From IMG/VR virus record IMGVR_UViG_2609460125_000009: DNA of 64,000 nt; one strand, given 5' to 3'. Position numbers and translations under genes: made by a program. The stretch comes from a virus (lineage: Duplodnaviria; Heunggongvirae; Uroviricota; Caudoviricetes). Under the pieces are notes generated by a model, which saw only the letters and a program-made list of their open reading frames with translations, did not search any database and was not told the origin of the DNA. Numbering within the stretch: position 1 is the stretch's first letter; the number at the start of each line of letters is the position of its first letter. Positions 2,276-61,188 of this stretch are shown here, one piece after another.

Positions 2276-2318
2276 CTAATACTAGAAAACAATTTGTTTA
2301 AAAAACAAAGGAAAGCAC

Positions 2319-3659
2319 ATGACCGAACTTTGCCATACAGGACGCGGGCTGTCCGAAGAGTTTGATGAAGATTTTCAGAACAGATTGACGGCCTATTTTT
2401 GTCGTGATCACGAGTTTCTTACTCGTGCTGGAGATCTGGTTGTACCTAGCCAATTTGCCAATGCGGCCAATGCCATATTGGTTAATATGGTTTCGGGCTA
2501 TTACCGTATGTACAAGAGCGCGCCCTCTTCATCTGCGATTCTGGATATGCTTAAGCGTGCGAAACGCGATAAGACTATCCGTGAGGAACTATTCGCCGAT
2601 GTTGTTGCTGCGTTTAAGCGCATCCTTGCAGAAAAATTGTCTGATACCTCGTACATGGTTGACCAGGTATCAACCTTCGCAAAAAGCGTAGCGTTTGATG
2701 ATGCTCTGATTAAGGCTGCTGAACTGAAAGAGAAGGGCGACTTTCAGGGGGCGATGGCAATCATGGCCAAGGTTCAGCAGATTGGATCGAACGAAGCGAC
2801 CGGAATCTATGACTACTACACCTCCGCAAGTGAGCGATTGAAAGCGCGTGAATATGAGGCTTCAGAGGAGTATGTGCCAAACAGCATTACAACTGGACTC
2901 CCTCTGCTCGATAGGTTGCTGTACCAAAAAGGCTGGGCGAAGCGTGAAATGGTGCTCTTCATGGGGTTCGCTAAATCCGGTAAATCGACCGCAATGGGTG
3001 AGTTTTCCATAAACGCAACGCTTGCTGGCTACAATGTTCTGTATCTCTCGCTGGAGGTTCACACCACCATTTTATCCGACCGTTTTGATGCAAGATTGTC
3101 GGAGACAGAAATGTCCAAGCTGGTGGAACGGCGCGATGAGGTTCATCGTAAGTTGGCAGAGTTGGGAGCCACGAAGGGGATTGGTAGTTTGTGGGTTGTT
3201 GAGCGTCCGTCAGGAAGTATGTCACCGGCAGATCTGGACCGTATGCTTAACAGCATGAAAGCCAATGGCATGGTGCCTGACATGGTTGTTGTCGACTACG
3301 CAGATTTGATGCGTGCCAGTTATGACCTTCGTGATGATCGCGCCAACATTCGTAGTATCTACACCGATTTACGTGCTCTTTATGACAAGCATAACGTTGC
3401 TGGGATCACGGCATCGCAGACAAACCGTGAAGGTGGCGCGTCAGAAGTTGCCACAATGATGCACGCTGCCGACAATATCGAAAAAGTACGTATTGCTGAC
3501 CTGGTAATAACGATCAACAAAACCGAAGAAGAAGAAGCGAAAGGAGAGGCTCGTCTCTACTTTGCTGGTTCACGTAACCAGCAGGGAGGGATCAGCATTC
3601 GCGTTAAACAAAACCTCGAACAAATGCGCTTCATTGAGCGAATCTTAGACGTTACCTAA
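2319..3659 (+). CDS. DnaB-family replicative DNA helicase
   Basis: Walker A GFAKSGKST, Walker B VVVDYADLM, RecA-like C-terminal domain typical of DnaB/T7 gp4 helicases; conserved AAAGGAAAGCACATG start context. Confidence 0.85.
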   Translation: MTELCHTGRGLSEEFDEDFQNRLTAYFCRDHEFLTRAGDLVVPSQFANAANAILVNMVSGYYRMYKSAPSSSAILDMLKRAKRDKTIREELFADVVAAFKRILAEKLSDTSYMVDQVSTFAKSVAFDDALIKAAELKEKGDFQGAMAIMAKVQQIGSNEATGIYDYYTSASERLKAREYEASEEYVPNSITTGLPLLDRLLYQKGWAKREMVLFMGFAKSGKSTAMGEFSINATLAGYNVLYLSLEVHTTILSDRFDARLSETEMSKLVERRDEVHRKLAELGATKGIGSLWVVERPSGSMSPADLDRMLNSMKANGMVPDMVVVDYADLMRASYDLRDDRANIRSIYTDLRALYDKHNVAGITASQTNREGGASEVATMMHAADNIEKVRIADLVITINKTEEEEAKGEARLYFAGSRNQQGGISIRVKQNLEQMRFIERILDVT

Positions 3660-3740
3660 AAAATAAGCGTGGAGAACACCTCCACGCTTGATTCATTGGT
3701 GAAACAACTTTTCTTTTGCCAAACCACAAAAGAAAAACAC

Positions 3741-4922
3741 ATGAGCCTTTATGTTATATCAACATTTAGGTTGGTCACAATATTGCCTGTTAAAAGTGGA
3801 ATTATCGTGAGCGAGCTGAAAGAGCTAATTACCGAATTAGATTTTGAACAATGGTTGGATACTGAAGGTATCGTTTATCGACGTGGAGGCGTGAGTACTC
3901 GCGGTCGTGAAGTGAATATCAAGGAGTGTCCGGTATGTGGCAGCTCCAACTGGAAGGTATATTTCAATCTGACCAGTGGCGTCGGTAAATGCTTCGCTGG
4001 TGATCATCCCGAAGAGATTCAGTTCAATAAGCTGGTCTTCCTCAAGCACTACAGCGGCAAATCACGACGACAGTTCGAGGAATATGTGCAGAACGCCCTT
4101 CTTTCCCAGGGGTGGGCACCAAAGAAAGAAGAGATAGTGCTTGCAAGCACAGTCGAGTTAGAGGGACCACTTGCACTCCCTCGTCATTACGAACTTCCTA
4201 TAGATGGCCGTCTTCCAGACTATCTGGTTGAACGAAACATATCGCCTGAAATGGCAAAGTATTTTGACCTACGATACTGCGTCGAAGGCAAGCACGCTTA
4301 TGTAGATCCGTATACAGATCAGGTTAAAGGACAGATATTCGATATGCGAATACTGATACCGGTTTACGATCTGGATGGGGTAATGAAGACATTTCAGGGG
4401 CGAGACATTACCGGTACAGCTGAACGTCGCTACCTCTTTCCTATGCAGCTTCCAGCTTCAGGTAAGTTTCTCTACAACGGCCATAATGCGGTCGGCAAAC
4501 AGACTGTAGTTGTCTGTGAGGGGGCGTTCGATGTTATGGGAGTTAAACGAGCTATTTTTGATGAAGAAACATTACGTGATTACGTGGAACCGATAGGAAC
4601 GTTCGGGATGCATCTATCTGGTAACACCACTCAGGATGCAGAAGATCAGTTGGGCGCGTTCCTGACGCTCAAGGCGCGTGGATTACGTAATGTGATCATG
4701 ATGTGGGATAGTGAAAAGCAAGCTATACGCAACACTATGGCCGCAGCCAGGCGACTGACCAGTATTGGTCTTAATGTCAAAGTAGCATGTTTGGGCGAGG
4801 AAGGACTCGACCCAGGCGATGCAACGCCAGAACAAATTATCAAAGCCTATTATCGGGCAAAACCGTATACCAAACAGTTGGAGTTGCAAAGCAAGGTTTT
4901 GGGCATTAAGGCGCTATCGTAA
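3741..4922 (+). CDS. DNA primase (zinc-finger + TOPRIM)
   Basis: CPVCGSS..C zinc ribbon, TOPRIM-like VVVCEGAFDVMG; start placed at the ATG with the conserved AAAAACACATG context (ORF in track begins at 3669). Confidence 0.8.
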   Translation: MSLYVISTFRLVTILPVKSGIIVSELKELITELDFEQWLDTEGIVYRRGGVSTRGREVNIKECPVCGSSNWKVYFNLTSGVGKCFAGDHPEEIQFNKLVFLKHYSGKSRRQFEEYVQNALLSQGWAPKKEEIVLASTVELEGPLALPRHYELPIDGRLPDYLVERNISPEMAKYFDLRYCVEGKHAYVDPYTDQVKGQIFDMRILIPVYDLDGVMKTFQGRDITGTAERRYLFPMQLPASGKFLYNGHNAVGKQTVVVCEGAFDVMGVKRAIFDEETLRDYVEPIGTFGMHLSGNTTQDAEDQLGAFLTLKARGLRNVIMMWDSEKQAIRNTMAAARRLTSIGLNVKVACLGEEGLDPGDATPEQIIKAYYRAKPYTKQLELQSKVLGIKALS

Positions 4923-10918: not shown

Positions 10919-10946
10919 TACATCGGCGTAACTCGGTGATTGTCAT

Positions 10947-12050: not shown

Positions 12051-12431
12051 AGACTTTATGGCCTCAACAACCTTTTGTGATGCGCCTTTCTCTTTACCGA
12101 ATCGCTCGTTATATGCAGCAAGAACCTGTTTTTCGTCCTCGTTAAGAGGAGCAGTGCCTTCTTTGTATAAAAATGCTGCGAGTTCGGGTTGGCGTTCTTC
12201 CAGCACCATCATCATAAGACGACTTGGCTCAATACCCAGTGCCAGCGCCAGCGGACGAACCTTATCGATAGGCAAAGGAATTTTGCCGCTTTTAATTAAA
12301 GAAAGGTTGTTGGCGTTTTTATACCCAATTGTTTTGGCTATCTGGGCCTGGCTCATAGGTGAGGATTCAATCAACCCTGCGATAAAAGCAGCGTAGCGAC
12401 TTTCTATAAATTCAATCTTGTTATCAGACAT
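12045..12431 (-). CDS. XRE-family helix-turn-helix transcriptional regulator
   Basis: HTH SQAQIAKTIGYKNANNLSLIKSGK; convergent with the recombinase gene. Confidence 0.65.
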   Translation of the reverse strand: MSDNKIEFIESRYAAFIAGLIESSPMSQAQIAKTIGYKNANNLSLIKSGKIPLPIDKVRPLALALGIEPSRLMMMVLEERQPELAAFLYKEGTAPLNEDEKQVLAAYNERFGKEKGASQKVVEAIKSL

Positions 12432-12682
12432 GGTTACAACCTTTGCGCGTTCAATTCTCTCTGGTAAGTGCTTACCGATATTACATCAAAGGTTAGGGTT
12501 GTAAAGCTATTATCATTTTTTTCGATAGGCACTTAAAAGACCGGTTAAAGGCCATTGCACGGAGAAAAATTAGCCCAAAATAGGTAAGAAAATCAACTTG
12601 CATATGATATGAATGTATTCAGTATTGATACAAATTTTAGTAGTATTCCTTACCATAGTATAAGTTAGAATGGATTGATTGA

Positions 12683-12895
12683 ATGAACACCACTATTTCC
12701 AGCCTAATCGCTCTTGAGATCGGACACGTACAGAAATTAGCTGATGAGTGTGTAGCTGACATCCTCACCGATCTACCGAATGAGCAGATTCAGGTTGGTG
12801 TGAATGACACAACTGGATTTATATTCGAACTTAACAACAAACGCTTCACGCTTCTCAATACCGGCTCCGGGTCTTTAGCCGTCAGAATCTGTTAA
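12683..12895 (+). CDS. hypothetical protein (70 aa)
   Basis: ORF in track only; weak support. Confidence 0.3.
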   Translation: MNTTISSLIALEIGHVQKLADECVADILTDLPNEQIQVGVNDTTGFIFELNNKRFTLLNTGSGSLAVRIC

Positions 12896-12993
12896 CCCCT
12901 CTTCTCCCTGCGCGAATGGCTTAGTTCCCTGTTCGCGCAGTGCTACATTAAACACACTAGTAAATAATTTGTTTTCATAACAAAGGATTAGCC

Positions 12994-15102: not shown

Positions 15103-15197
15103 ACAAAACAGCCTTAACGATAAGTAACCACTTACGATAGATAATGATATATTTATATAAGAAGTTGAACGCTCATTAGAAAACAAAGGAAAAACGC

Positions 15198-16433
15198 ATG
15201 ACTACTACTGCACTGCAAAATGAAAACAATCCTTCTGATTACCTTGTTTGCAAGTGGTGCGGAAAATCATTTCACTATTTTAAGTCCCATGTTGCCAATG
15301 GTAATTGCGAGGGCATTCCTGAGTCAGTAAAAGATGCCGATCCTGACACCGTACTGAAAATGTACACAACACAGTTTCCAGATGAGCCAACGCTATCGAA
15401 AAAGGCACTTGATGCAATTCAAGCTAAACGTGCCGAGCAAAAAAGCGAAATGGCCAAATCATCTGGCGTGACCAGTAGCCCAGGCTACACAGGCACAGTT
15501 GAGTACAAGACAGATCTGGTCGCAGCTCACGAACTGCTAAATGTAACGGTGAAAGAACTCGGAACAAAACGTGGGACGCCGCTCATGGTTAGCGTCAACG
15601 TCAATACGCCGTTTCCAGAGTTCGTTCCAGAAGTGAAGAAGGGATACGTATATGGCGACTTCGAACTGATCAAAGACATTTTCATGATGCTTGAACTTGG
15701 CATACCTGGCTATTTGTGGGGTCATGCAGGAACAGGCAAATCGTCATTGCCTACACAACTATGTGCTTTGCTCAATCGTCCGTTGATCCGTGCCCAACAT
15801 ACAGCATCAATGGAAGAGGCACATGTTACGGGGCAAATTCTGGCGCGTGATGGCTCTACGTATTTCGAGCCTGGCTTGCTTGCGCTCGCAATGAAGCATG
15901 GCTGGGTTTACCTCGCGGATGAATACGACTTTGCGTTTCCACAAATTCTTGGCGTGTATCAGCCAGTGCTGGAAGGTGAAGCGTTAGTCATCAAAGAGGC
16001 GACTCCAGAATGGCGTCGCATTACTCCGCATGAACGGTTTGCTTTCATTGGCACTGGCAACACGAACGGATCTGGTGATGAAACCGGCTTGTACCAGGGT
16101 ACAAACATCCAGAACGCCGCGAACTTTTCGCGTTTTGGCATCGTTTCGAATGTGAAATACATGAGCAAAGAGGCAGAGATCAACATGTTGATAAATGCCG
16201 GTATCGTGGATGAATACGCAGAAAAGATGGTTAAGTTTGCCGGTATCGTTCGCGATGGATACGAAGAACACCTTATCAGTCAGCCAATTGGCCCTCGTGA
16301 ACTTTTGTTGTCGGCCAAGATTGGAATGATGCGAGGCGACTTTGTGACAGGTATTGAGCGTTCTTTCATTAACAAACTCCCTTCAGCTTCTGCACAAGCG
16401 GCTCGTGAAGTTGTTCAAAAAATATTTGGTTGA
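15198..16433 (+). CDS. AAA+ ATPase, CobS/MoxR-like
   Basis: Walker A GHAGTGKSSL, Walker B VYLADEYD, sensor region; conserved AAAGGAAAAACGCATG start context. Confidence 0.7.
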   Translation: MTTTALQNENNPSDYLVCKWCGKSFHYFKSHVANGNCEGIPESVKDADPDTVLKMYTTQFPDEPTLSKKALDAIQAKRAEQKSEMAKSSGVTSSPGYTGTVEYKTDLVAAHELLNVTVKELGTKRGTPLMVSVNVNTPFPEFVPEVKKGYVYGDFELIKDIFMMLELGIPGYLWGHAGTGKSSLPTQLCALLNRPLIRAQHTASMEEAHVTGQILARDGSTYFEPGLLALAMKHGWVYLADEYDFAFPQILGVYQPVLEGEALVIKEATPEWRRITPHERFAFIGTGNTNGSGDETGLYQGTNIQNAANFSRFGIVSNVKYMSKEAEINMLINAGIVDEYAEKMVKFAGIVRDGYEEHLISQPIGPRELLLSAKIGMMRGDFVTGIERSFINKLPSASAQAAREVVQKIFG

Positions 16434-16613
16434 TCGTGCGTAAAGGATGTTTCGGCTCTCTTATCGCTGCTTCTGAAACTGGTAAGGCTTGTCTGGTGTG
16501 TCCAGACAAGCCCGATTGTCACCAATCAGCAAAAGAAGTTGCGATTTCGATGCATGGGAAGTTCGTAGGCTTCCCAAATGACAAAATCAAAAAAACCAGA
16601 AAGGTAAAAACAC

Positions 16614-19600
16614 ATGAAGGCACTGATGGTTCGAACTGACTTCTCACTTGGGGAGTCGGCTTTAAAAGCAGAAAACGCGGTGAAGATTGCCAGAGAAGCT
16701 GGCTACACCGCTGTAATTTCAGCAGATAGCATGAATATTGCGAGCGTTATTCCACTACAACGTGCCGCTGGTGACGACATGGCGGTTATTTGTGGTGTGA
16801 AACTAAACATCGTTGATGATCCCACATACGAGCACCGGGCTAAACTTGCTAAAGAGTCTAAGGGATGTATGGAATCATTGGAGCGAGGACGTAACTACTC
16901 GTTTACCGCTCTAATTAAAAATGAGAAAGGATATCGCGACATCTGCGAACTAATGACGGCGGCCAACACACGAGAACAGTTCTACTTTGTACCGCGTCTC
17001 TCGCTCGAACAGTTGGTTTCTACATATGCCAAAGGCAACATCATCCTGCTTACTTCCGACATCGGTAGCGTGTTCCAACGCAACGATTTTGCAAAAATCA
17101 TAAGCACACTGATTACAGCGGGTGGAAAAGACAACTTCTATAGTGTGGTTTATCCGCACCCTACCCCATTCTACGACCAGATTAACGTCCGGGCGATGAA
17201 AGTCGCCAGCGCATTGAAAATAGAGCCAGTGGCGTTCTATCCCGCTTATTACGAATCGATCGACGATGCAGACATTAAAGACATTGCGCACATGGTTACG
17301 AACAACATAAAAATCGACCAGCCGCATCGTCTGCGTATCCCCCACCAGCGAGATAACGCCATCAATGGTCGTCGCCATCTCCTTGAGGCGCTTAAAGCCT
17401 TCTCCGTTCGCATGGATGTGCCGGTAACAGCTGCAATGGCCTCAACAACGCAGGACTCCATTATCGATGCCTGCACATGGCGCTGGCATGAATTGCCACC
17501 AGCACTGCCCAAGATGGCAGACGACGAACCTGCAACGCTGATGAAACTGGCTGTTGCAGGGCTGCGTAAACGTCTTACCACAAAAGAGTTTGGATACACA
17601 CCACCTGCTTCTGAGAACAGGGTTTATGTTGAGCGGCTAAAGTACGAAATGGACACGCTGACTCGCCTGGGATTCTGTGGTTACTTCCTGATGGTACGCG
17701 ATCTGATGAATCACAGCCGTGAAACTGGCATTCCTGTCGGGCCTGGTCGTGGTTCCTCTGCCGGTTCTCTGGTGGCGTGGTGCATAGGCATAACCAACGT
17801 CGACCCAATCCGTCACGGTCTTCTGTTTGAGCGTTTCATCAACCCTGAGCGTCTCGACTTGCCGGATGCTGACTTGGACTTCAGCCAGGCACGTCGCCAT
17901 GAGGTGATCGAGTATCTGAATGAACGCTACGGCGAAGATTACGTTGCAGGCATTCCGAACTTCACCTATCTGGGCGCGGCATCTGCGCTGCGTGACACTG
18001 CACGTATTTACGGTGTCGATGCTGCGGATATGGCGGTATCCAAAGAGTTCAAGAATATGGAGGACGACAGCCTGTCTCTGGAAGAGCTGCGCGAGCAACT
18101 GGCCAGCCTGGACAAATACGCCACGAAAAACCCGGAAGCGTTCAAAGCGGCGTGTAAGCTGCAAAGCCTGATGCGTGGTTTTGGTCGTCACGCTGCGGGG
18201 ATGATCGTCGCTGGCGTTCCATTAGTAGAGCGCACGCCCGTCGAGCTGCGTGGCAATGCTCGATGTATTGCGTTCGATAAACGTTACTGCGAGGCGATGG
18301 GGCTGATTAAGTTGGACGTTCTCGGTCTGGCAACACTCGATCTTCTGGATAGCGCGAAACGCTACATCAAAGAGAGTACCGGTGAAGACATCAATCTCGA
18401 CGCTATCCCACTGGACGATCGCAAGGTTCTGGATGGGTTCGCTGCAGGGTACACGCAGGGCGTATTCCAGCTGGAGTCCGGCCCCATGCGTAAGCTGCTT
18501 AAAGATCTGGGCGGTGGCATCGAGCCAATGAGTTTCAAAACCGTTGTCGCAACTACCGCCCTCTTCCGACCGGGACCGATTCAATCCGGCATGTTGGATG
18601 ACTATGTTTCCGTTGCGAAAGGATTTATGACGCCTACATCACTACATCCTGTCTTGGATGAACTGACCTCTGAAACAAATGGAGTGATTCTCTATCAGGA
18701 ACAAACGATGAACGCAACAAGGCTTCTTGCTGGTTTCACAATGGCCGAGGCGGATGGTGTGCGTTCAGCAATCGGTAAGAAGAACATGGAAAAGATGAGG
18801 AGCATGGGTGAGAAATTTGTCATTCAGGCTCAAGCTGGGTGGATCGACGTAGAGCTTGAAAATGGCGCAATACAACGGATTCATCGCGCAGAACATTTTA
18901 AATGCGAGGACGGTACTCTGAGGACAGTTGAAGAGGCGTTGGAGCATGGAGTGAAGCTGCCAATGCCAGTTGTGCGCGTTACAACGTCACATCCAGGTCT
19001 GTCTGAGACGAAGGCAAAAGAGATATGGACTGCATTTGAGAAAAACGGAGCCTATCAGTTCAATAAATCACACTCCGTTGCTTATTCTTTAATCAGTTAT
19101 CAGTCTATGTGGCTAAAGACGCACTACCCTGCTGAGTTCTTCGCAGCTGCGCTCACCATTCTGGGCGAGGATAAGCATCAGGGGCTGGTGAAGGATGCGC
19201 TGACCTATGGCATTCGCGTATTGCCACCAGACGTTAATGTGTCATCTAACCGAATTGAGATCCGCACACTCGAAGACGGCAGTCAGGCACTGTATGCGCC
19301 ATTCTCTGCTGTGAAAGGCTGTTCTGAAAATGGTTGTCAGGCAATTATGCGTGCGCGTGAGAAAGTTGGTGGCAAATTCGAGTCAGTGGCACAATTCGAT
19401 GAAGCGGTCGAGAAGCGTGCATGTAACAGTCGTGTACGCGAGTCGCTTCATAAAGTAGGGGCTTTTGCGTCAATTGAGCCAGGCAGTCTGCCAGCAACTG
19501 ATCCTGAACGACTGCGCGACCAGGCTGAGCTGATGGGCAATCTCATCATTGACGCTGTTAAAGCATCACGTCCGTTCGAAATGAATCCTAAGCGTTCTGC

Positions 19601-20162: not shown

Positions 20163-20435
20163 AAAGAATTATGGCGCTTGTTGAGGAAGTCACTCCTCTT
20201 ACGCACTTTGTTTTGCCATGCCGGCAGTTAGCTTCTGCCTTTGACTATTCATGCGGCAACCCCGCATTTCGCCACAATGGGCAATTCACTTTTATGGAAT
20301 AAACTGGCCGTTGTGTCGATTTAATTAGCATGGCCTTACCATGCTAATTTATTCAACTTGTACAATCCTACAAATCTATCCACTCAGGCTTACACCGTCT
20401 TCGTTATTGTAGAAATGAGGATCATCAGCGTTGAA

Positions 20436-20651
20436 TCAGCTTAGAGCAACGACATTTGCTGCTGCTGGGCCTTTAGCCCCATTCTCGATAGAGAATTCGA
20501 CCTGCTGGCCTTCTTCCAAAGTGCGGAAATTATTACTCTGAATTGCCGAAAAATGTACAAAAACATCTTTACTGCCATCAGCAGGAGAAATAAAGCCAAA
20601 GCCTTTATCAGAGTTAAACCATTTTACTAAACCAGTCATTTTATTAGACAT
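20436..20651 (-). CDS. cold-shock protein, CspA family
   Basis: [21 protein letters not shown] ... VFVHFSAI with RNP1/RNP2-like motifs; start moved to the internal Met matching the CspA N-terminus; ~300-nt leader upstream. Confidence 0.85.
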
Positions 20652-20980
20652 AGATATTACCTTCTTAATTTTGTGAGCCACATAGTGCGGCGAGAATTTG
20701 ATCTGTATAGATTGGGACTTACTTAGGCACTTAAGGAGGAGACTCACGAAGAAGGGAAATCAGAAGATAACACTGAACTGAGACTGCTTTACTAAAACTG
20801 CTTACATAAGGTCTGTCTTGCAAACCAACGATGCTATTAACGCATACCCCTTCTTTTCATGCAACCTTTATTTTTCAAAGATAACTAATTTTTGTCACCA
20901 TTGGTTTAGTAAACGTTAACGAACCAGACGATGCCAGACACCTTTACAGAGAACAGATGCCCGCCAATTGGCGGGCATCA

Positions 20981-22515: not shown

Positions 22516-22632
22516 TTTTTGATAGATAATAAGTAAGTACTGATCTATCATTTAACAGCTCGAAAGAGCCACGAATGAACGAAAGCCCAACGCGCATAGC
22601 GCCATCGGCCAAATCACAACAAGGAGAAACAC

Positions 22633-23661
22633 ATGTCTAAGACATTACTTGATTTGCTTAACAAAACTCGTGAAGACATTGCCGCCAAACGTGGCAACAA
22701 CGTTGATCTGACTCGCTTAAAAGACGGCGTCAACTATATCCGCATCTTCCCGAATAAAGACGACCCAAACGGTAAGTTCTTCCAGACTTTCGGTATGCAC
22801 TACGTTAAGTATCAGAACGAGGAAGGTAAAGAAGCAACCAACGCTTATATTTGTGAGCAACATACTCACGGTCGCGCTTGTCAGCTATGCGAAATGGTGA
22901 TGGAAGGTCGCGCTCGTCACAAGGGTAACAAAGCAATGGAAGAACGCATCGGTCAAATGCGTGCCACTCCTCGCTACCTGGTCAACGGCATTCTTTCTGC
23001 TCGTGAGGATTTCGCAGATGCTGAGAAATGCCAGTTAATCGAGCTGCCGTCTACTGTATTCGATGATATCTGCAAAGCAATCACCGAAGACATCGCTGAT
23101 GATATCGGCAATCCACTGAGCAAAGAGGAAGGCTACGCATTCCTGATTAAACGTACTGGCTCTGGTCGCGATACCAAATATGACGTCTCGCCTAAGCGTA
23201 AAGTCTACAAAGGCGATATCGAAGATAAATTCTGGAACACCCAGCATGATCTGATCGCATACGCAAATCAGGCTGATGAAACTCGTCTTCTGTCGACAGT
23301 TCGCACTATGGGTCGTCTGATTGGCATCGCTGCACCAACTGCCGCAGCATCTGCACCAGCAATTTCCTCAACCGCGAAAACATCGGCTGCGGCACTACCT
23401 GGATTTGGCTCTGTCACTGGTCATACAGAAGGAGCGACGGCTGTAGCAACCGCGCACACACCGGCTTCTGAACCAACCAGTCTGGTTGATGAAGAAATCC
23501 TCCGTGCCGTTGAAACTGAATTTAAACCAGAGGCAAGTTCCGCTGCCGTTGCCGTATCAGTCAAAGAGTCTGAAGCAGTCGCAGCGACATCTGTAGCAAC
23601 CGCATCTGCGACGGAAGATGAAGGTCTGGATGACCTACTGAGAGAGCTGGACTCTCTGTAA
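22633..23661 (+). CDS. single-stranded DNA-binding protein, gp32-like
   Basis: Zn-binding C..H.H...C..C cluster (CEQHTHGRACQLC), Ala/Ser-rich linker and acidic C-terminal tail DEGLDDLLRELDSL. Confidence 0.65.
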   Translation: MSKTLLDLLNKTREDIAAKRGNNVDLTRLKDGVNYIRIFPNKDDPNGKFFQTFGMHYVKYQNEEGKEATNAYICEQHTHGRACQLCEMVMEGRARHKGNKAMEERIGQMRATPRYLVNGILSAREDFADAEKCQLIELPSTVFDDICKAITEDIADDIGNPLSKEEGYAFLIKRTGSGRDTKYDVSPKRKVYKGDIEDKFWNTQHDLIAYANQADETRLLSTVRTMGRLIGIAAPTAAASAPAISSTAKTSAAALPGFGSVTGHTEGATAVATAHTPASEPTSLVDEEILRAVETEFKPEASSAAVAVSVKESEAVAATSVATASATEDEGLDDLLRELDSL

Positions 23662-27304: not shown

Positions 27305-27367
27305 TCTCTTGAAAATATATAAGTGCTTACTTATCATTTTTCACATAACAACCACATAGGAAAACAC

Positions 27368-27568
27368 ATGATCAAAATCTATCTATTGGCAGTAGCCACA
27401 GGCCTTTCAGTGGCTCTCATCTACGGATTACTGGTTCCGTCGCTGATTTCTGCAAAGAGTGATTTGGCCGTCATGCTTGGAGTTCTCGTTGGTTTTGGCG
27501 CTCCAGTAATCGGTCTTATTGGTGGTCGTAAGTTTATTAACTCATTAATCAAAGCAAAGGGGAAATAA
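27368..27568 (+). CDS. small two-TM membrane protein (66 aa)
   Basis: Start at the ATG with GGAAAACACATG context; hydrophobic throughout; directly upstream of the SPFH gene. Confidence 0.5.
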   Translation: MIKIYLLAVATGLSVALIYGLLVPSLISAKSDLAVMLGVLVGFGAPVIGLIGGRKFINSLIKAKGK

Positions 27569-28444: not shown

Positions 28445-28493
28445 TCGCAATTATCTTATTAAGAAAACAATTTGTTTAAAAGGATAAGAAAAC

Positions 28494-28919
28494 ATGACAG
28501 CTATTAAGAAACTCTACGATGCCGCAAACGTGGCTCTGGATGTTATTGATGATGAAGTAGCAAAAGGCTTTCCTGAACCTGATTGGGCGCATCAGCTACG
28601 AAACGCTATCGCAGAAATGACCCCACCAGATCCAACCCCCGACGAGACAGACTGGCAGCGATTCATCCGTATGTACGCTCAGGAAATAGGTCCAACGCCA
28701 ACGGCAGAGCAAGCAATGCTGCTGAAATACTTCAAAGAGGCGGGGGAGGATTTACCAATTGATGACTCAGCATATTGGTTCCACTGCGCATGGCGTAAGT
28801 ATGACGTGATATTCACACAAGGCATGGGGAGCAAAGATATGGTTGTGTGGCATCTACTCCATATAGACACAGCCGTTGACAGAGTTATTGAACAGTTTTT
28901 CCCTAAACAAGAAGATTGA
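28494..28919 (+). CDS. hypothetical protein
   Basis: 141 aa; conserved AAAACAATTTGTTTAA ... AAAACATG upstream context. Confidence 0.55.
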   Translation: MTAIKKLYDAANVALDVIDDEVAKGFPEPDWAHQLRNAIAEMTPPDPTPDETDWQRFIRMYAQEIGPTPTAEQAMLLKYFKEAGEDLPIDDSAYWFHCAWRKYDVIFTQGMGSKDMVVWHLLHIDTAVDRVIEQFFPKQED

Positions 28920-28974
28920 TCGCCTATTCATAACTACCAAAATAAGTAAACACTAACCACAAAAGGAAAAACAC

Positions 28975-29250
28975 ATGAGAGTTTTAGTTCGAATCGTTAC
29001 CAGCACTGTCTATGACGCATTTCCGCTTTTTATCGTCAAAGCCGATGGCCTTAACGACGAAGAAACTGACGCGCTGATCCAGCGTACTCTTGTTGAATAT
29101 ACAGGTCATGACGCTGATTCAGTGATGGTTGATGATGATGGTGTTTGTTGGCATAACGGCAACTGTTGGTACGTAGAAGAGACTCAACAAATCAGTGATG
29201 AAGATGCCGCACATCTTGAGCGTATTTTAAGCATCAGCACTTTTGAGTGA
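28975..29250 (+). CDS. hypothetical acidic protein (91 aa)
   Basis: Conserved GGAAAAACACATG context; Asp/Glu-rich. Confidence 0.5.
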   Translation: MRVLVRIVTSTVYDAFPLFIVKADGLNDEETDALIQRTLVEYTGHDADSVMVDDDGVCWHNGNCWYVEETQQISDEDAAHLERILSISTFE

Positions 29251-30013: not shown

Positions 30014-30491
30014 TAGCACCAACCACTGCGGTGAGTAGCCAGCTCACCGCATTCGTATCAGCTCATTATCCACTGTGGTCTGCAGTCCTCTCTTCCTACA
30101 TATCTGCTAACCACTGTAGCGAGTAGACAGCCTTTCATTCGCATCAAACAACCACTATGGTGAGTATTGGAGTGAGATGTACAGCGGGTATCCACTATGG
30201 TGAGTAAGCCTTTGCTGTTTTCAGTGGATATCCACTCGCCACAGTGGATACGCTCAAAGATGAGGGCGACAACAACCACTATAGACAGTAAATTTTCCAA
30301 GATACCCAGTGACCACTAACCTCGCAGCCCTTGTTTCATCAGTGTTAGTGATCACTAACATTTGATTCAGTATTTGCATTCTACTGCCTACAGTGGTTAT
30401 CAACAGATAACGATACTCACTATAGTGGATAGCGAATTACAGATATAAGTAAGGCTCACTACAGTGGATAGTGAGCCTTACTACTAACTAC
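30011..30491. repeat. iteron array downstream of rep (incA-like): ~10 copies of the palindromic core CCACT(A/G)T(A/G)GTGG in both orientations
   Basis: e.g. aaccactatggtgagta (30141, 30181), accactatagacagta (30265), ctcactatagtggatag (30406), ctcactacagtggatagtgag (30445). Confidence 0.7.
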
Positions 30492-30501
30492 AGTGGTTGG
30501 G

Positions 30502-31557
30502 CTATTTGCGAGTCTTTGCCTTGCGCAACTCTTCGAGAAGCGCCAGTTCTTCTTTACTCAACATGACCATTTTGCCTTCTTTTTCGTCAGGCACAACGTC
30601 GATAATGTCATCTTGATTCTCATCTGGGAGGCTATATTCCGTCTCATCATTATCGATTTTTGTTGATATTTGTGCCTGGCGTAACTTTGGCCGCCTATAG
30701 TGGATGACGAAGTAGACCGAGTTTCCGCGCTTAACTTCCGTGTAATCGAGATATCCTATCTCTCGCAGCTGTTCCATAGCCTTTCTTACCGTCGCATTCT
30801 GAGTAATAGTGCGACTTGTCAGATTAAGTCTGGCGCGTAAACGGGCTAGTGATATTGGTGCCGGATCAGGCGGCAAACTTTCAATAAAAGTATAAAGCGC
30901 CTGAGCGGATTCTTTTCTTGAGAGTTCGTTTATAGCCCGGAGTTGCAGAAGAACCTTTTTGTCGAACTGGTAGAGTTCGAAAATCTTGGGATCTGCTTTC
31001 AGTTCGACCGTATCGTGCTTGACACTATATTTTGCCGTTTGCACAAGATGCGTTACGTAAAACTCATCAGAGCCTTTGCTACGGAACGAGATGGTATTTG
31101 TGGCAATACGGCTTAGCGAACTGTCCAGGCGTTTGCGTAACTTCGCTGATGACCTGGCGGTCGGAATGCCACACAGCCTTACAAACTCAACGAACGGCAA
31201 CGTGACAGTATCGCCAACGACCTTGTGTTTGGCAAACGCGTGGATTATTCCCACCCACGTTTTAAAGTCGTTATCCATATCAAGCCGAAGGCCAGAGATC
31301 CTTATGTCTTCGTACCCTTCGGCTTTTGCCAGAGACAGCTGTTTGAGTTCAGCAGAGGCATCCATAGAGACCATTTGCCCCTTTCTTCCTCTGGATGTCG
31401 ATTTCAGCGTCGGAACGAAGAGGCCCAGACGCATCAAAGCAACAGGCTGAACAGTGTTATTAGTGTTAGGAACCAACGTAACAACTTCGCCTGTCTTTTT
31501 ATCTGTTTCTGAAAATGCTTCAACGATCGCTATGTTTTTATTGCCGTTTTCGCTCAT
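30502..31557 (-). CDS. iteron-binding plasmid replication initiator (RepA/Rep_3-like)
   Basis: 351-aa protein flanked on both sides by iteron arrays, adjacent to DnaA boxes and GATC cluster; family assignment from architecture and general sequence character. Confidence 0.7.
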
Positions 31558-32945: not shown

Positions 32946-33199
32946 CCCTCCAGATCGTATATTGGCGTAGATAGAATCTACGCCCCCTCAAAATAGCTCT
33001 CATAGCGTTCTACAGTGATCCAGTCTTATTTTTAGTCATACAGACAAGCAAAGTTGCGCCACGATAAATAGGTATATACTTACTTATAAATTTTGTATAT
33101 TAAGGCGCTCGTTTCATTCCTAACATACCGTTATGCATAGTTGTTTACCTCCTCATTGCTCTTAGAATTTGTATCAAAATAACCACAAAGGAAAAACAC

Positions 33200-34285
33200 A
33201 TGACTTTGCCATACGGCGTCATTTCTGACTGCCACTACCACAAATGGGATGCGTTCTCCACGACGAACGCTGAGGGGCTTAACTCCAGACTTGAAATACA
33301 GTTGGAAGCAACGAAAGAAGCAGCCATCGCCATGAAGAAGGCCGGTTGTACGTACATGTTGGTTGCCGGTGATACATTTCACGTCCGAGGAACTGTGTCC
33401 CCTTCTGTTTTGCATTACGTAACTGAAACGTACAAGTGGATTATCAACGAGCTTGATCTGACAGTAGTAATGCTGGCCGGTAATCACGATCTTGAAACCA
33501 ACGATTCAGTATATAGCGCCAACGCAGCAGCATCGCTGAGTTCTATCGGCGTGGTAATCGTATGTGGCAAGTGCCCACACTCAATAAAAATTGGTGATGT
33601 GACTGTCCACCTGATTAGCTGGCGTAACAATCATGCGGAGCTTATCAGCGATCTGAAAGCATTACGTAAGAGCGTAGAAGGTGACAATCATGACGTTGTT
33701 ATCCATACATCCATTAACAAAGCCATTCCAACAATGCCTGACGTCGGTATCGATGCGCAGGAGTTAAAGGATATCGGCTTTCGTCTCGTGCTTAGTGGGC
33801 ATTACCACAACCACAAAGAGGTCATTCCTGGAGTTATCAGTGTCGGTGCACTGACTCATCAAAATTGGGGAGATGTTGGATCTCTGGCTGGCTACATGAT
33901 CGTAAACCCGGACGGCAGTTTCAGTCACTACGAAACCAGTGCGCCTAAATTCATTAACCTGGAAGATGATGTTGCTGATGACCAAATTCGCGGCAACTAC
34001 GTGCGTTTCCGCGCCGTAATTGAGAACGATGAAGAAGGCATTAAGTACCAGAACATCCTCAAAACAATGGGTGCAAAAGGTGTCGTGTGCAACTTCATCC
34101 GTAAGTCATCAATGATGGAAGGGACAGCCAGCACAACTGAAACCAGCAAAATCGATAGCCTGGGAGAGTCGGTATCTGCTTATTGCAAGATTGTCCACGA
34201 TACTGACGGCGGATTTGATCTGAGCAAATTGGATATTTTGTGTCAGGAAATCCTCACCGAAGCGGAGAGTTCGGAGGCTGTGTGA
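33200..34285 (+). CDS. SbcD/Mre11-like nuclease (calcineurin-like phosphoesterase)
   Basis: Motifs DCHYH, GDTFH, GNHD; followed by the Rad50-like ATPase. Confidence 0.8.
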   Translation: MTLPYGVISDCHYHKWDAFSTTNAEGLNSRLEIQLEATKEAAIAMKKAGCTYMLVAGDTFHVRGTVSPSVLHYVTETYKWIINELDLTVVMLAGNHDLETNDSVYSANAAASLSSIGVVIVCGKCPHSIKIGDVTVHLISWRNNHAELISDLKALRKSVEGDNHDVVIHTSINKAIPTMPDVGIDAQELKDIGFRLVLSGHYHNHKEVIPGVISVGALTHQNWGDVGSLAGYMIVNPDGSFSHYETSAPKFINLEDDVADDQIRGNYVRFRAVIENDEEGIKYQNILKTMGAKGVVCNFIRKSSMMEGTASTTETSKIDSLGESVSAYCKIVHDTDGGFDLSKLDILCQEILTEAESSEAV

Positions 34286-40132: not shown

Positions 40133-40232
40133 CATATGGTGGGGTATATCCCCACCTTATCTTTGATTTGTAAGCCTTGTTTAAACACATAAGATAACAA
40201 CTTGTTTAAACACATCAAAAAAGGAAAAACAC

Positions 40233-41375
40233 ATGTCATATTCAACGTTCCGTTTGGGTGCTAATGATGCAACCAAAGAGCCTATGTTCCTCGGACAATC
40301 TGTCAACGTGGCACGTTACGATCAGCAAAAATACCGTGATTTTGAAAAGTTGATTGAACGTCAATTGTCTTTCTTCTGGCGGCCGGAAGAAGTTGATATT
40401 TCGAGTGATCGTATCGACTTCAACACGAAGCTGCGGGACCACGAACGTCACATTTTTCTGAGCAATCTCCGTTATCAAACGTTACTCGATTCAGTTCAGG
40501 GACGTAGCCCAAATGCAACGCTTCTGCCGCTTATCTCTATTCCTGAACTGGAAACGTGGGTTGAAACATGGTCTTTCTCTGAGACTATCCATAGCCGCAG
40601 CTACACCCACATTATTCGTGGCATGGTGGACGATCCGAGTATTGTTTTTGACGGTATTGTTACGGATGAAGAAATCATCAACCGAGCGATCAGTATCTCT
40701 GCTGAATATGACAGGCTTTATGGGATGACCTGCGAGCGCCAGTCGTTAGGTGAGAAAGAGTTTGAACGTCTGTACGTAAATGAATATGGCTGGGAGCCAT
40801 ACCCTTTGCACCGTCAGCTTTTCCGCACGTTGGTGTCCATTAATGCGCTTGAGGCGATCCGTTTCTATGTAAGTTTTGCATGTACGTTTGCCTTTGGCGA
40901 ACGGAAGTTGCTTGAGGGTAACACCAAAATTATGCGCTTTATTGCCCGTGATGAAGCTCTGCATTGCGAAGGAACTGAACGCATGATCCGCTTCATGCGT
41001 ACCGGTCGCGAAGGCTTATTGTGGAAAGAGATTGCTGCTGATGAAGAAAACGTCATTTACGACACCATGAAATCAGTCGCCGAACAAGAAATGAACTGGG
41101 CAGACTATCTCTTCAAAGACGGTTCGATGATTGGTTTAAACGCGGATATTCTGAAGACCTATGTAAAATACCGCACCAATCTGGCTATGAATCGTCTTGG
41201 CCTGAAGGCTTTATTTCCAGAAGTTACCACAGATCCGCTGGTCTGGATGAACAAGTGGTTGTTAACCGACACACTGCAAATTGCACCACAAGAGGCAGAG
41301 CAAAGCACATATCTGGTAGGTCAGATCGATTCTACCGTGGATAAGGCTTCTCTAAGCCAGTTTGCAGACCTGTAA
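40233..41375 (+). CDS. nrdB: ribonucleotide reductase class Ia small subunit
   Basis: Immediately downstream of the large subunit; length and overall sequence character typical of R2; conserved GGAAAAACACATG context. Confidence 0.85.
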
Positions 41376-45609: not shown

Positions 45610-45618
45610 GGAGTAGTA

Positions 45619-46413
45619 ATGGGACAACCGGTAGACATAACAGGTAAACGTTTTGGAAAGTTGGTTGCACTTAAATATTCCGGTATTTCAAACAAACAAG
45701 GGCGACTTTGGGATTGCATCTGCGATTGCGGCAACACCTGCCTGGTTAGTTACGGGAAGCTAAATCACGGGGCGACAATATCGTGTGGCTGTGTCTACAA
45801 CGCACATCGCCGTAGCGTAAAGCCTCATGGTATGAGTAAAACGCCAATTTATCGTATATGGCTGGGTATGCGGGAACGATGTGAAAAACCAATCCATCAC
45901 GCCTATAAGTGGTATGGCGGCCGAGGTATCAAAGTCTGCGAGCGGTGGCAAATATTTGAAAACTTTTATGCTGACATGGGAGAGCGACCAGAGGGGATGT
46001 CTCTTGATCGCAAAGATGTGAATGGTGACTACGAACCTGAAAATTGCAGATGGGCGACTTTTGAAGAACAGGCCAATAACACGCGTTCAAACTTAATTTT
46101 GGAGCATAAGGGGGAAAAGCTGACTCTCTCACAATGGGCTAAAAGAGCCGGGATTCAGACATCAACTCTTCACTATCGAATCAAGAAAGGGTGGCCATTA
46201 GATCGCGCGCTTAACGCCAGCGTCGACACGTATGCCAACCGAGATAGTAAGCGTCTGATCGAGTGTCGCGGCAGAACTCAGCGAATTACCGAATGGGCTA
46301 GAGAGGTTGGCTTGACTGCGACCATTATCTCGCAGCGAATTTTGAGGGGGTGGGATGTTGAAGCTGCCATCTTCACACCGTCCAAACGACCAGTAAAAGG
46401 AGATAAAAAGTGA
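45619..46413 (+). CDS. HNH-like homing endonuclease family protein (degenerate) with C-terminal HTH repeats
   Basis: Cys-rich N-terminus, YGGRGIKVCERW and SLDRKDVNGDYEPENCRWAT..EQANN resembling HNH_3-type proteins, two helix-turn-helix-like repeats. Confidence 0.45.
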   Translation: MGQPVDITGKRFGKLVALKYSGISNKQGRLWDCICDCGNTCLVSYGKLNHGATISCGCVYNAHRRSVKPHGMSKTPIYRIWLGMRERCEKPIHHAYKWYGGRGIKVCERWQIFENFYADMGERPEGMSLDRKDVNGDYEPENCRWATFEEQANNTRSNLILEHKGEKLTLSQWAKRAGIQTSTLHYRIKKGWPLDRALNASVDTYANRDSKRLIECRGRTQRITEWAREVGLTATIISQRILRGWDVEAAIFTPSKRPVKGDKK

Positions 46414-46958
46414 TTGCTACAGGGGTGGACATCGAATCAACAGGTCTTGATTTCCTCTCAGGCCATAAAATCATTGAAATCGCAATGGTGAAGTACGAAA
46501 TTGAGACACAGACAATGGTTGATAGTTTTGTAATGCGGTTCAACCCGCGTCGCAGTATCGATCCGAAAGCGCAAGCGGTACACGGCATCAGTCTTGAAGA
46601 TTTAGCCGCCGAGCCGTTACTAGCCGATCACGCTTCATCTGTCGCTTCGTATCTCTCTTCTTCCGATATTTGGATAGCCCACAACGGCGAAGCGTTCGAT
46701 ATTCCGTTTATTAGGCATGAGCTGAAAAGTTACGGTTTTTCGCTTCCAGACATCCCATTGATTGACACTCTATTTTCCCTGTGGGCCACAGAAGACGGTA
46801 AACGTCCTCGCCTTGAAGAATTGGCCTTCTCTCTTGGCTTTATATACGATCATGCCAAAGCACATAGTGCCTTATATGACACAAACTTAATGATGCAATG
46901 CTTCTTTAAGGCACGTAATAAATACGGATTTTTTAAATTACCCTCTGAAATTGTGTAA
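46410..46958 (+). CDS. DnaQ-like 3'-5' exonuclease (DEDDh)
   Basis: Exo I VDIESTG, Exo II IAHNGEAFD, Exo III HSALYD; GTG start with AGGAG RBS. Confidence 0.75.
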   Translation: MIATGVDIESTGLDFLSGHKIIEIAMVKYEIETQTMVDSFVMRFNPRRSIDPKAQAVHGISLEDLAAEPLLADHASSVASYLSSSDIWIAHNGEAFDIPFIRHELKSYGFSLPDIPLIDTLFSLWATEDGKRPRLEELAFSLGFIYDHAKAHSALYDTNLMMQCFFKARNKYGFFKLPSEIV

Positions 46959-51147: not shown

Positions 51148-51240
51148 CGGTTGTTAGTGCATATGCATTGACCGTCTTTTCGTAAGCAATTCATGTAACT
51201 AGAAAACAACTTGTTTTAACAAATAACAAAAGGAAAGCAC

Positions 51241-51666
51241 ATGTTAGGTTTATTCAAAAAGAAAACTCGTAAAGCTGTTATCGAGGTCAAAAAAATGGAG
51301 AACCGAGATGCGGTTGAAGCCACCGTGTGGGGCGCGTACATGATCTCCTATGCCGATGGCACATGCGACGCAAAGGAAATTTCCATTCTTGAGAAAACAA
51401 TTGCAGCTCTGCCTGCGTTTTCTCCGTTTGCTGGTGAGATTGCCCAAATGAGCGCCAATATCCGTGCTCAATACGAAGCCTCACCGCGCCGCGCTAATGC
51501 CCAGGCTTTACGTGAGCTGGCTGATGTGGCCGGGACTAATGATGCAGTAGATGTACTGTGTCTGTGCCTTGATATTGCCGACCAAGACGGTATTGGCGAA
51601 CAAGAAGAGCTGGCCCTGAAAAAGATCGCACAGGCGCTTCAGTTGTCACTGGATGCTTATCTCTAA
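51241..51666 (+). CDS. TerB-like domain protein (tentative)
   Basis: Two ADG..(E) helical repeats (ISYADGTCDAKE, DIADQDGIGEQEE); conserved upstream motif. Confidence 0.45.
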   Translation: MLGLFKKKTRKAVIEVKKMENRDAVEATVWGAYMISYADGTCDAKEISILEKTIAALPAFSPFAGEIAQMSANIRAQYEASPRRANAQALRELADVAGTNDAVDVLCLCLDIADQDGIGEQEELALKKIAQALQLSLDAYL

Positions 51667-51824: not shown

Positions 51825-51963
51825 TGACAAGGGCCAAATGGCCCTTGTGTTTCGTTGACCGAAATAGAGAGTTTGCACCTTTACGTTTAGCTTGCTCCCC
51901 TTTTATGCCACATCACAATAAAGCCAATAAGAAAACAACTTGTTTAAGCATTAGGAAAAACAC

Positions 51964-52530
51964 ATGTGCAAGAAATGCAAAGCGATAGCTGATGAACAAA
52001 ACGCCTTATTCGAAGAAATGGATGCTAATGAACTGGTCAAAATGTTAGCCATTCTTCGAGGAATAGAAGACGTTTCCATATTTGAGAGAGTGGTTACAGC
52101 ACTTAATTTTGAGTCCACCTTTGAAGAGCCAACTCAGATTGTAGCTTTAGCACATCATTTCGGTGTTCATTATCTTGCTGAAAAAGAGAGAGCTGATAAG
52201 TTGCAAGCGACTTTGGATATGGTGAGCGAGACTCAAGGATCTCATGACGGTAATAAAAGTGAGACGATTATTGCCAGCAAAGATCGTGAAATTGCCGGGC
52301 TTAAATCCTCTCTAACGATGTTGATGTCTGCAATTAACCTTATGTCTTCTAAAGCAGGTTATAAAATGCCATCACTAAACAGCGACGATCCGATGGCCGT
52401 TCGCCAGCTTTTAGGTGCAATGGCCGACCAGCTCGACGACACAAAGAGTCGCCTTGAAGACATGATGCGGGAGCTCACGCATCGCCATGACTTGAATAAG
52501 CAGCCGCACAAAACGCAATACGCACTCTAA
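51964..52530 (+). CDS. hypothetical coiled-coil protein
   Basis: 188 aa; conserved upstream motif; terminator gggggc-gaaa-gccccc at 52548-52570. Confidence 0.55.
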   Translation: MCKKCKAIADEQNALFEEMDANELVKMLAILRGIEDVSIFERVVTALNFESTFEEPTQIVALAHHFGVHYLAEKERADKLQATLDMVSETQGSHDGNKSETIIASKDREIAGLKSSLTMLMSAINLMSSKAGYKMPSLNSDDPMAVRQLLGAMADQLDDTKSRLEDMMRELTHRHDLNKQPHKTQYAL

Positions 52531-52671
52531 TACTGCACCAGTCGACAGGGGGCGAAAGCCCCCATTTTTACGCCTTAAATCTGCTGTAACGCCTATGAAT
52601 GCAGCTTTTATGCCTTTTCAAGTTTGCGATAATTACACCAATCAGAAAACAAATTATTTAATGGTGTAATT

Positions 52672-54357: not shown

Positions 54358-54418
54358 TAGGTAAATACTTACCTAATTTGTGTAAGAATGTAGTTACTAA
54401 ACGATAAGAGAAAAACAC

Positions 54419-55123
54419 ATGAACAACCTCCAGTTAGAGCATTTTAACGTCACAGGCCATTCTGATTTTCCTTTCAAGTTTACATTGAAAGGTTATGCAG
54501 AGGATGCGGTAGGCCAGATCATTATTGATAAAGGCATCGTTAAGTTTGAGGGGGATTTTGATGAATCCGCGAAAACATTCATAGACTTCGTTGCCAAACG
54601 TTGGAGCGAGCAATGGAAAAACCTGGAAAAGCGCGCCAATGAGTTTGATCGGTTCATGGATGCAATGGATACAGCAAAAGAGGCTCTTGATGCCGGGACT
54701 CCGTTAGATCTGGAGTCACTTTTCAACGGCGAAGTGGCCTCTGCGATGTTCGCCACCATGTTCGCGGGTGAGTTCGTCCGCAGCGGTGCCAAAAACTACC
54801 TTGAGCTGGATTACAACGTCCCTGCAATTGGCGATTTCGTCGTTACCATCCAACGCAAAGAAGGTAAGACGCCAGGTGAACGCGTCGCAGAGCTTGAGGC
54901 CGTTGTGGATCAGCGTAACGGAGAGTGTGACCGTTTGATCAACGAGCTTCATGCACTTCGGGAAGAAAGAATATGTGCGGGTAGCAATACACGTAATGCA
55001 GCGGATATCTACTTCCAGTTAGTTGAGGAATGCCAGATTCCACCAGGTGGCTCTCTTGTCGATTACGTCAGACATTTAATGGCGGAAGTTAACTCCAGCC
55101 ATAAAGATGGTGAGGTGCGCTGA
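54419..55123 (+). CDS. hypothetical protein
   Basis: 234 aa; conserved GAGAAAAACACATG context. Confidence 0.55.
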   Translation: MNNLQLEHFNVTGHSDFPFKFTLKGYAEDAVGQIIIDKGIVKFEGDFDESAKTFIDFVAKRWSEQWKNLEKRANEFDRFMDAMDTAKEALDAGTPLDLESLFNGEVASAMFATMFAGEFVRSGAKNYLELDYNVPAIGDFVVTIQRKEGKTPGERVAELEAVVDQRNGECDRLINELHALREERICAGSNTRNAADIYFQLVEECQIPPGGSLVDYVRHLMAEVNSSHKDGEVR

Positions 55124-55503: not shown

Positions 55504-55622
55504 ACGCTACAAATCCTTCGGCATGAATAAATAAAGGCCATAAGTTGTGGCCTTAAATAAATTGTTTTCTACCTTTTCTTATTTGTGAAAATAACAACAA
55601 CTAGAAAACAACGGAGTTAAGA

Positions 55623-60869: not shown

Positions 60870-61154
60870 TAACCAAATGTACCCACAATACCGCAACATC
60901 AGTGTCTTGCGAATTAAGATAGGATTTATAGAGACTATGTGCAAGTGCATAACTTTGTGGATAACTCGTAAAGGAAAAAGTGGTTTCCGCGGACATTAGT
61001 TCAGACAAGGAGTCTGGGAAAGTCAATGGGAAGTAAAAATTTGTTAAAAATAACGTTTGTTGGAATTGTATATATTTATGCCTTTCAATAGTTAGCATCT
61101 TATTAACATCTTTTTTAAGAGATAGAGTTCAAAAATATATAGCTTCAACATATA

Positions 61155-61170
61155 CTGTATGCATATACAG
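61155..61170. promoter_or_regulatory. LexA (SOS) box
   Basis: taCTGTatgcatatACAGca, perfect CTGT-N8-ACAG with AT-rich centre, ~20 bp upstream of the UmuD'-like gene. Confidence 0.7.
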
Positions 61171-61188
61171 CATTAAGAGGCGAGTATT

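Follow-up and report, generated by a model that had tools for sequence, protein, structure and literature searches.

Two short sequence elements precede the start of nrdB, an inverted repeat and a block that ends on the start codon, and both recur upstream of other genes in the window, a term denoting here the whole stretch of 64,000 nucleotides that was analysed. The window belongs to a phage-plasmid of the SSU5/pSLy3 type and is 99% identical to Escherichia phage Cyrano (pLF82); the DNA identity of nrdA between the window and Salmonella phage SSU5 or Klebsiella phage-plasmids is approximately 76%. Its content is a T4-like replication, recombination, and nucleotide-metabolism module, including genes for helicase, primase, ligase, CobT/CobS-like proteins, DnaE, UvsY, a gp32-like SSB, RecA, SbcCD, NrdAB, and ThyX, among others, with UvsW also annotated. 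SSU5-type phage-plasmids are widespread; examples are pHCM2 (S. Typhi), pMT1 (Y. pestis), and carriers of resistance genes from Klebsiella and E. coli. In the searchable literature, no description was found of either element or of the regulatory circuitry of SSU5-type phage-plasmids, and a search with the motif sequences returned no papers. The window was compared with the rest of Cyrano, SSU5, pJN2-26, K. oxytoca pCAV1015-111, Y. pestis pMT1, and distant Acinetobacter and Aeromonas relatives, helicase identity to the window being 68% for pCAV1015-111 and approximately 37% for the Acinetobacter and Aeromonas relatives.

Several further features of the window were recorded. The RecA/UvsX-like gene (24935-27274) encodes 779 aa versus 358 aa in SSU5, and contains an intein with a LAGLIDADG homing endonuclease at approximately residues 73-486 (Pfam). 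A cold-shock protein gene (20411-20829, minus strand) carries a full-length cspA thermoregulator 5'UTR (Rfam RF01766, 186 bits), and three tRNA genes, annotated in Cyrano as Asn, Thr, and Ser, are clustered at 9225-9468. Repeated units of the CAGTGGATAG type at 30440-30500 adjoin repA (30502-31557, minus strand) and are probably replication iterons. Two LexA (SOS) boxes are present, at 10901-10920 and 61153-61172; a perfect box, TACTGTTTACTTATACAGTA, lies 27 nt upstream of an integrase-like gene, and a box with one mismatch lies upstream of an S24-peptidase (UmuD/LexA-like) gene. The two boxes fit the induction of Cyrano by ciprofloxacin (PMC9928086).

The start-site block

The block consists of an A/C-rich leader, AAGGA, an A-run, CAC, and the start codon (AAGGA-A(n)-CAC-ATG). 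The first-pass annotation had described it as nearly invariant before thirteen start codons, and it is indeed found at all 13, the weakest instance being that of gene 28494, AAGGATAAGAAAACATG, which is without CAC. The 15-mer AAGGAAAAACACATG, with up to two mismatches allowed, has nine matches in the window versus 0.26 expected, and every one of the nine lies on the plus (gene) strand and ends at an ORF start. The helicase gene (2319) and gene 51241 carry the same block sequence, AAAGGAAAGCACATG, and the commonest 8-mers on the plus strand of the window are AGAAAACA (14 copies) and AAACACAT (13 copies). The length of the A-run differs by up to 3 nt, giving a spacing of 5-8 between the SD and CAC, and CAC stays fixed beside ATG. 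A scan of IMG/VR for AGGAAAAACACATG returned only isolated, scattered matches, and neither the block sites nor the repeat sites have an Rfam match.

In two relatives, the block ATG opens a uORF of 6-15 codons that overlaps the main start (TAATG or TAAATG), an arrangement that suggests translational coupling from the block. These uORFs were observed at L138:1411-1503 and, upstream of primase, in L139 and L009, with the stop overlapping the start of helicase or primase. In a Buttiauxella contig (L137), the ATG of the primase block is replaced by ACG.

Table 1. Coordinates of block, O_A, and cassette sites in the window (O_A denotes the inverted repeat)
Feature	Position	Strand	Remark
O_A, helicase gene	2284..2301	+	
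Helicase block AAAGGAAAGCACATG	2307..2321	+	
Primase block	3729..3743	+	in pCAV-type relatives, ATG opens short uORF coupled to primase
O_A, CobT-like gene	12960..12977	- (reverse orientation)	without full block
O_A half-site AGAAAACAA fused to CobS-like block	15178..15200	+	
dnaE block	16602..16616	+	within preceding small ORF
gp32-like SSB block	22621..22635	+	
Small membrane-protein gene block	27356..27370	+	behind O_B promoter
O_A and weak block (without CAC), DUF7238 gene	28462..28496	+	
Block of gene 28975	28963..28977	+	
SbcD-like block	33188..33202	+	
Extra O_A half-site, nrdB	40176..40190	+	first copy of 15-bp direct repeat CTTGTTTAAACACAT; second copy at 40201
O_A upstream of nrdB, AGATAACAACTTGTTTAA	40192..40209	+	orthologous position conserved in SSU5 and pJN2-26
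nrdB block AAGGAAAAACACATG	40221..40235	+	orthologous sites: GGGAAACAC-ATG or GGAAAATAC-ATG
O_A and block, TerB/TciA-like gene	51201..51243	+	
O_A and block, gene 51964	51930..51966	+	
Canonical cassette, DUF4942 gene	52625..52661	+	extended -10 TGCGATAAT, 10 nt, O_A; ordinary RBS, without block
Block of gene 54419	54407..54421	+	behind O_B promoter
Full cassette	55534..55611	+	terminator hairpin, then upstream O_A at 55553-55570; TGTGAAAAT extended -10 at 55584-55592; downstream O_A half-site at 55603-55611

Were the motif simply the optimal RBS context of the host, E. coli genes should carry it just as often, which is not borne out. CAC occupies positions -3 to -1 in 13 of the 64 window genes; none of 97 compared genes of E. 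coli K-12, a set that includes ribosomal-protein operons, has it (Fisher p = 3e-6, window versus E. coli), nor does any of 25 structural genes of Cyrano. The strict form GGA-A(n)-CACATG does not occur across 100 kb of K-12, and with a block matrix the true blocks score 14-19 versus 7.3 for the best of the 97 E. coli start regions; host-optimal RBS context was rejected on these grounds.

Conservation between lineages is concentrated on the same positions. Among 31 ortholog pairs from the window, SSU5, pJN2-26, and pCAV lineages, identity at -6 to -1 is 0.94 versus 0.64 in the non-coding upstream sequence and 0.75 in the first four codons, with 0.47 for control first genes; conservation thus extends beyond the Shine-Dalgarno requirement, as had been proposed. 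The C-A-C at -3 to -1 is conserved at 84-100% across lineages, above the first codons, and pCAV retains the block although the encoded N-termini are only 32-68% identical. The block is also present in Y. pestis pMT1 and was not found in the Acinetobacter and Aeromonas relatives. Block leaders are 80% A+C, and structure prediction indicates that the block keeps the start region unstructured, the predicted opening energy being 5.5 kcal/mol for block genes versus 8.7 kcal/mol elsewhere (p = 2e-4).

A shared post-transcriptional site is supported by the conservation of the block beyond the SD, by its non-host context, and by its attachment to the start codon. The block is probably a shared translational control site, and the pattern argues for a sequence-specific translational signal. 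On the mRNA, it would give genes of replication, recombination, and nucleotide metabolism a structure-free site for ribosome loading.

The inverted repeat and the promoter cassettes

The inverted repeat, here termed O_A, is a palindrome of the form AGAAAACAA-N-TTGTTTAA, and AGAAAACAANTTGTTTAA with up to three mismatches has eight matches in the window versus 0.40 expected. It had been described as often accompanying the block. A repeat is located 23-32 nt upstream of the ATG at only five of the 13 block genes (2319, 28494, 40233, 51241, and 51964), and it also precedes three genes without a block (12994, 52672, and 55623); O_A and the block are therefore separable. Further copies are located upstream of parA and of the terS/late operon, and O_A is also found upstream of promoters and in reverse orientation.

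A set of 70 O_A sites was assembled from five genomes (the window, Cyrano, SSU5, pJN2-26, and pCAV1015-111). In this set the half-sites are invariant and the central base is random (15/18/19/18); the 40-odd deviations are all one-sided, and compensatory pairs number zero. As an RNA hairpin, the repeat would reach only -0.7 kcal/mol, and with no covariation in the 70 sites the RNA-hairpin reading of the repeat was rejected. Structure prediction around the start codons, which had been suggested as a check, thus speaks against a folded repeat and for start regions that open easily at the block. The Salmonella fliC leader was also considered as an O_A site and rejected, since only a 7-8 bp core, CAAGTTGT, is common to both and invariant positions are violated.

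The surroundings of O_A are those of a promoter. The promoter-proximal cassette has the form ..GCCTTTTc-N8-TGnGATAAT-aacaccaaca-AGAAAACAAnTTGTTTAA-SD-ATG, in which O_A begins 10 nt past GATAAT, itself preceded by TGn (an extended -10). In many cassettes, a second full O_A is located exactly 50 bp upstream, next to a terminator hairpin and over the -35 region. Canonical O_A cassettes mostly have an ordinary GGAG RBS instead of the block. Judged from these sequence features, O_A is a DNA operator in a compact promoter-operator cassette, not an RNA structure. The repeated promoter is of the sigma-70 type with an extended -10 (TGnGATAAT), and its predicted start lies a few bases ahead of O_A, which places the operator at approximately +5 to +22. 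A dimeric repressor would bind there, and with a further copy often over the -35 region, the bound protein would exclude RNA polymerase. Cyrano, SSU5, and pCAV additionally contain clusters of O_A together with AAGAAAACAA half-sites in a stretch without apparent coding sequence (L008 ~100-250; L005 ~40700-40800; L011 41000-44600), perhaps serving as a regulator sink, a centromere-like site, or an sRNA locus.

O_B, the other palindromic operator class, has the form TA(A/G)GTA-NN-TAC(T/C)TA and yields 24 matches in the window versus 2.1 expected, with start positions at 1504, 4938, 8460, 15121, 22065, 22530, 27320, 28943, 29274, 33069, 37753, 42463, 48082, 50298, and 54358. O_B overlaps the -10 (..ACTTATCAT) of sigma-70-like promoters, several of which drive block genes, and O_B-overlapped promoters precede nrdA, thyX, dam, ssb, cobS, and others. 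Half-sites of O_B are located in the control region of the HTH repressor gene (12431-12683), and related sites are present even in the Acinetobacter and Aeromonas relatives. The leading candidate for an O_B-binding protein is CYRAN_45. Positions of both O_A and O_B overlap predicted -10 or +1 regions, and genes downstream of O_A or O_B are at background in RNA-seq of the Cyrano lysogen (PMC9928086, supplementary table S1). The block itself occurs behind O_A promoters, behind O_B promoters, or behind neither; the dnaE block, being inside the upstream small ORF, is not behind a promoter. The two alternatives offered by the first-pass annotation, a shared post-transcriptional site or a compact promoter plus RBS cassette, apply to different elements, the former fitting the block and the latter the inverted repeat.

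Two explanations that treat repeat and block together can be weighed against this arrangement. One is an RNA operator made up of both, in which one translational repressor recognizes a small hairpin together with the SD; in its favour are the 23-32 nt between repeat and ATG in five genes and the Salmonella fliC leader, where a small inverted repeat is centred at -21 before AAGGAAAA. However, the independent occurrence of repeat and block leaves such an operator unsupported, some repeats are placed ahead of promoters or in the opposite orientation, and neither covariation nor hairpin stability favours an RNA fold, so that this explanation is scarcely credible. The other holds that the similarity arose from the spread of mobile promoter-terminator-RBS cassettes by recombination, in the manner of PeSL, the mobile regulatory cassettes of T4-type phages (PMC2839356), and not from selection on a regulatory site. 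The combination of terminator hairpin, promoter, operator, SD, and start codon flanking small accessory genes speaks for such spread, and of approximately nine breakpoints between the window and Cyrano, one (55595) is inside an O_A promoter cassette, which hints at gene shuffling via cassettes. It nevertheless leaves unexplained the conservation of -6 to -1 at orthologous sites with diverged flanks, as well as a block within coding sequence before dnaE; its probability as the source of the similarity is low, and it is compatible with selection on two regulatory elements, not exclusive of it. Replacements and indels distinguish the window from Cyrano, with breakpoints at 55595, 430-1354, 45614-46780, and 52473-52607.

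A candidate repressor and other readers of the block

A search for an RNA-binding protein among the small unknown ORFs had been recommended; the candidate that emerged, of the FljA family, is encoded outside the window. PHROGs assigned no function to the small proteins except for an HTH repressor at 12045-12431, and Pfam detected no RegA-family protein (PF01818) among approximately 60 proteins drawn from the window and from the remainder of Cyrano. No FljA-family gene is present within the window; the candidate, CYRAN_114 in Cyrano (SSU5_121), is encoded elsewhere on the replicon and matches PF03614 (FljA) over its full length (E = 1e-80), with a weak match to Hfq and a predicted tandem Sm/Hfq fold of the RNA-binding type. 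In a distant relative of the element, Aeromonas hydrophila pKAM330_1, an Hfq homologue (L185:11618-11941) is encoded directly upstream of the replicative helicase, so RNA-binding proteins with an Sm fold may be a recurrent feature of this replication module.

The FljA-like gene is present on 831 plasmids, comprising 341 of Klebsiella, 229 of Escherichia, 92 of Enterobacter, 62 of Yersinia, and 60 of Salmonella, and none of the 831 is an Acinetobacter plasmid. K. pneumoniae and Y. pestis lack flagella, and a purely fliC-directed role would therefore not explain why the gene is retained. The protein is found in all five block-bearing lineages examined, with orthologues in SSU5, pJN2-26, pCAV, and pMT1, and the Acinetobacter and Aeromonas relatives have neither the protein nor the block; this co-occurrence carries little independent weight, as it could reflect one ancestral clade (phylogenetic confounding). 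In the Cyrano lysogen, CYRAN_114 is expressed at log2 ~7-8 in most conditions, while expression of the block genes stays at background (PMC9928086, supplementary table S1). FljA-type proteins act post-transcriptionally by preventing translation of fliC mRNA, according to PMC2652032, which cites Bonifield & Hughes 2003 and Yamamoto & Kutsukake 2006.

The Salmonella fliC leader was recovered from 42 metagenome contigs and confirmed by the divergent fliD. This leader, ..GATAAGGAAAAGATC-ATG, has AAGGAAAA, the spacing, and C at -1 in common with the block and agrees at 12 of 15 positions. Its block-matrix score of 4.8 is above 96 of the 97 E. coli start regions but far below the true blocks, and E. 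coli fliC scores -10, so the likeness of the block to the known FljA target is weak.

From these observations, the following arrangement can be proposed. The block would most likely double as an operator that all its genes share and that a sequence-specific translational repressor recognizes, the best candidate for this repressor being the FljA-family tandem Sm/Hfq-fold protein of the same replicon; in plasmid-state lysogeny, this protein would bind the AGG-AAA-AAC stretch and occlude both SD and AUG. The analysis establishes that both elements exist, that they are separable, how they are distributed, and that they are selectively conserved, as well as the low predicted structure of block leaders and the presence, predicted fold, and distribution of the FljA-like protein. 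We consider the chances roughly even that the account as a whole holds, with O_A as a DNA operator and the block acting on mRNA with an FljA-like candidate repressor. The more specific proposal, in which the block is the RNA operator of an FljA-family tandem-Sm regulon that silences the T4-like replication and recombination module in plasmid-state lysogeny, is tentative and may well be wrong. We infer the link between FljA-like protein and block, as we do the transcription starts, repression at O_A, and every binding event. The variation in A-run length fits a rigid protein site poorly, and since transcription of the block genes is already off in the lysogen, their silence does not call for a translational layer.

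Alternative readings of the block differ mainly in whether they account for its exact sequence. It might be a purely cis-acting, structure-free RBS of high efficiency, a C/A-rich enhancer that was inherited and selected for strong initiation in early operons with no dedicated trans factor. C/A-rich elements reportedly serve as translational enhancers, and the composition and easy opening of the leaders, the near-optimal SD strength and spacing, and the ability of the block ATG to act as ribosome entry for coupled uORFs all agree with this explanation, which deserves serious attention even though we think it unlikely, since many sequences would be equally unstructured and yet C-A-C is conserved above the first codons, and since neither the highly expressed structural genes of the phage nor the ribosomal-protein genes of E. 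coli ever use it. A host factor could also read the block: AGG-AAA-AAC corresponds to the A-R-N repeat bound by the distal face of Hfq, ACA..GGA to a CsrA site, and AAACACA to the UGUGUUU seed of the sRNA GcvB, and the phage-plasmid encodes no antisense copy of the block within two mismatches over 13 nt. These matches are short and were noticed post hoc, however, and the sampled E. coli genes without the block indicate that it is not a general host regulon signature, which makes a host reader improbable. The gp32-like SSB (22633-23661; PF08804, E = 1.7e-66), whose own gene carries the block, might repress the block genes by coating their unstructured leaders once ssDNA is saturated, thereby widening the autoregulation of T4 gp32 to a regulon, in keeping with the T4-like replication module (UvsY, UvsW, gp32, SbcCD, NrdAB). 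Since gp32 binds with little sequence specificity, the exact conservation of CAC would remain unexplained, and the ssb gene is silent in the lysogen; we regard this explanation as very improbable. Matches to a DnaA box, an NrdR box, boxA, MazF ACA sites, and SgrS pairing were poor or at chance level and were dropped.

Comparison with known systems

The outcome is a testable wiring diagram that comprises dispersed O_A and O_B operators, a family-specific translational signature, and a candidate RNA-binding repressor. Should the FljA link prove true, it would provide a function for a protein conserved on more than 800 plasmids, hosts without flagella included, and a second multi-gene translational operator system in phages beside T4 RegA. 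The flagellar phase-variation repressor FljA would then be a member of a broader family of mobile-element translational repressors, acting across the SSU5, pHCM2, pMT1, pKpn, pSLy3, and pCAV groups (more than 800 sequenced plasmids).

T4 RegA is a translational repressor of an early-gene regulon, and the arrangement described here resembles it in that a conserved, unstructured sequence containing AUG is common to about a dozen early replication genes that are otherwise unrelated, within a replication module that is itself T4-like. It differs in that no PF01818 protein was found among the approximately 60 proteins scanned, and in that the consensus is A/C-rich (AAACAC-AUG), not A/U-rich. The likeness to the Salmonella FljA-fliC pair consists in a full-length protein of this family on the replicon, the family being described in PMC2652032 as preventing mRNA translation. 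Identity of the protein is 35-36% to plasmid-borne FljA of Salmonella and 39-41% to other FljA-annotated proteins; additionally, many targets are proposed here where FljA has one, Klebsiella and Y. pestis without flagella are among the hosts, and the similarity of the target sites is weak.

P1 C1 operators, mycobacteriophage L5 stoperators, and IncP KorA/KorB are examples of dispersed-operator control, in which, as here, many promoters around a replicon carry copies of one operator sequence. The operator sequences differ, and two operator classes are present here, O_A and O_B (TAAGTA-NN-TACTTA); O_A is palindromic, whereas P1 and L5 sites are asymmetric. The PeSL cassettes (PMC2839356) share with those described here, as judged by sequence only, a repeated sigma-70-like promoter, a stem-loop terminator, an SD, and a start codon before small accessory genes. 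The cassettes of this temperate phage-plasmid differ by the addition of a palindromic operator, which is often duplicated at a distance of 50 bp, and recombination between cassettes is suggested by one breakpoint only.
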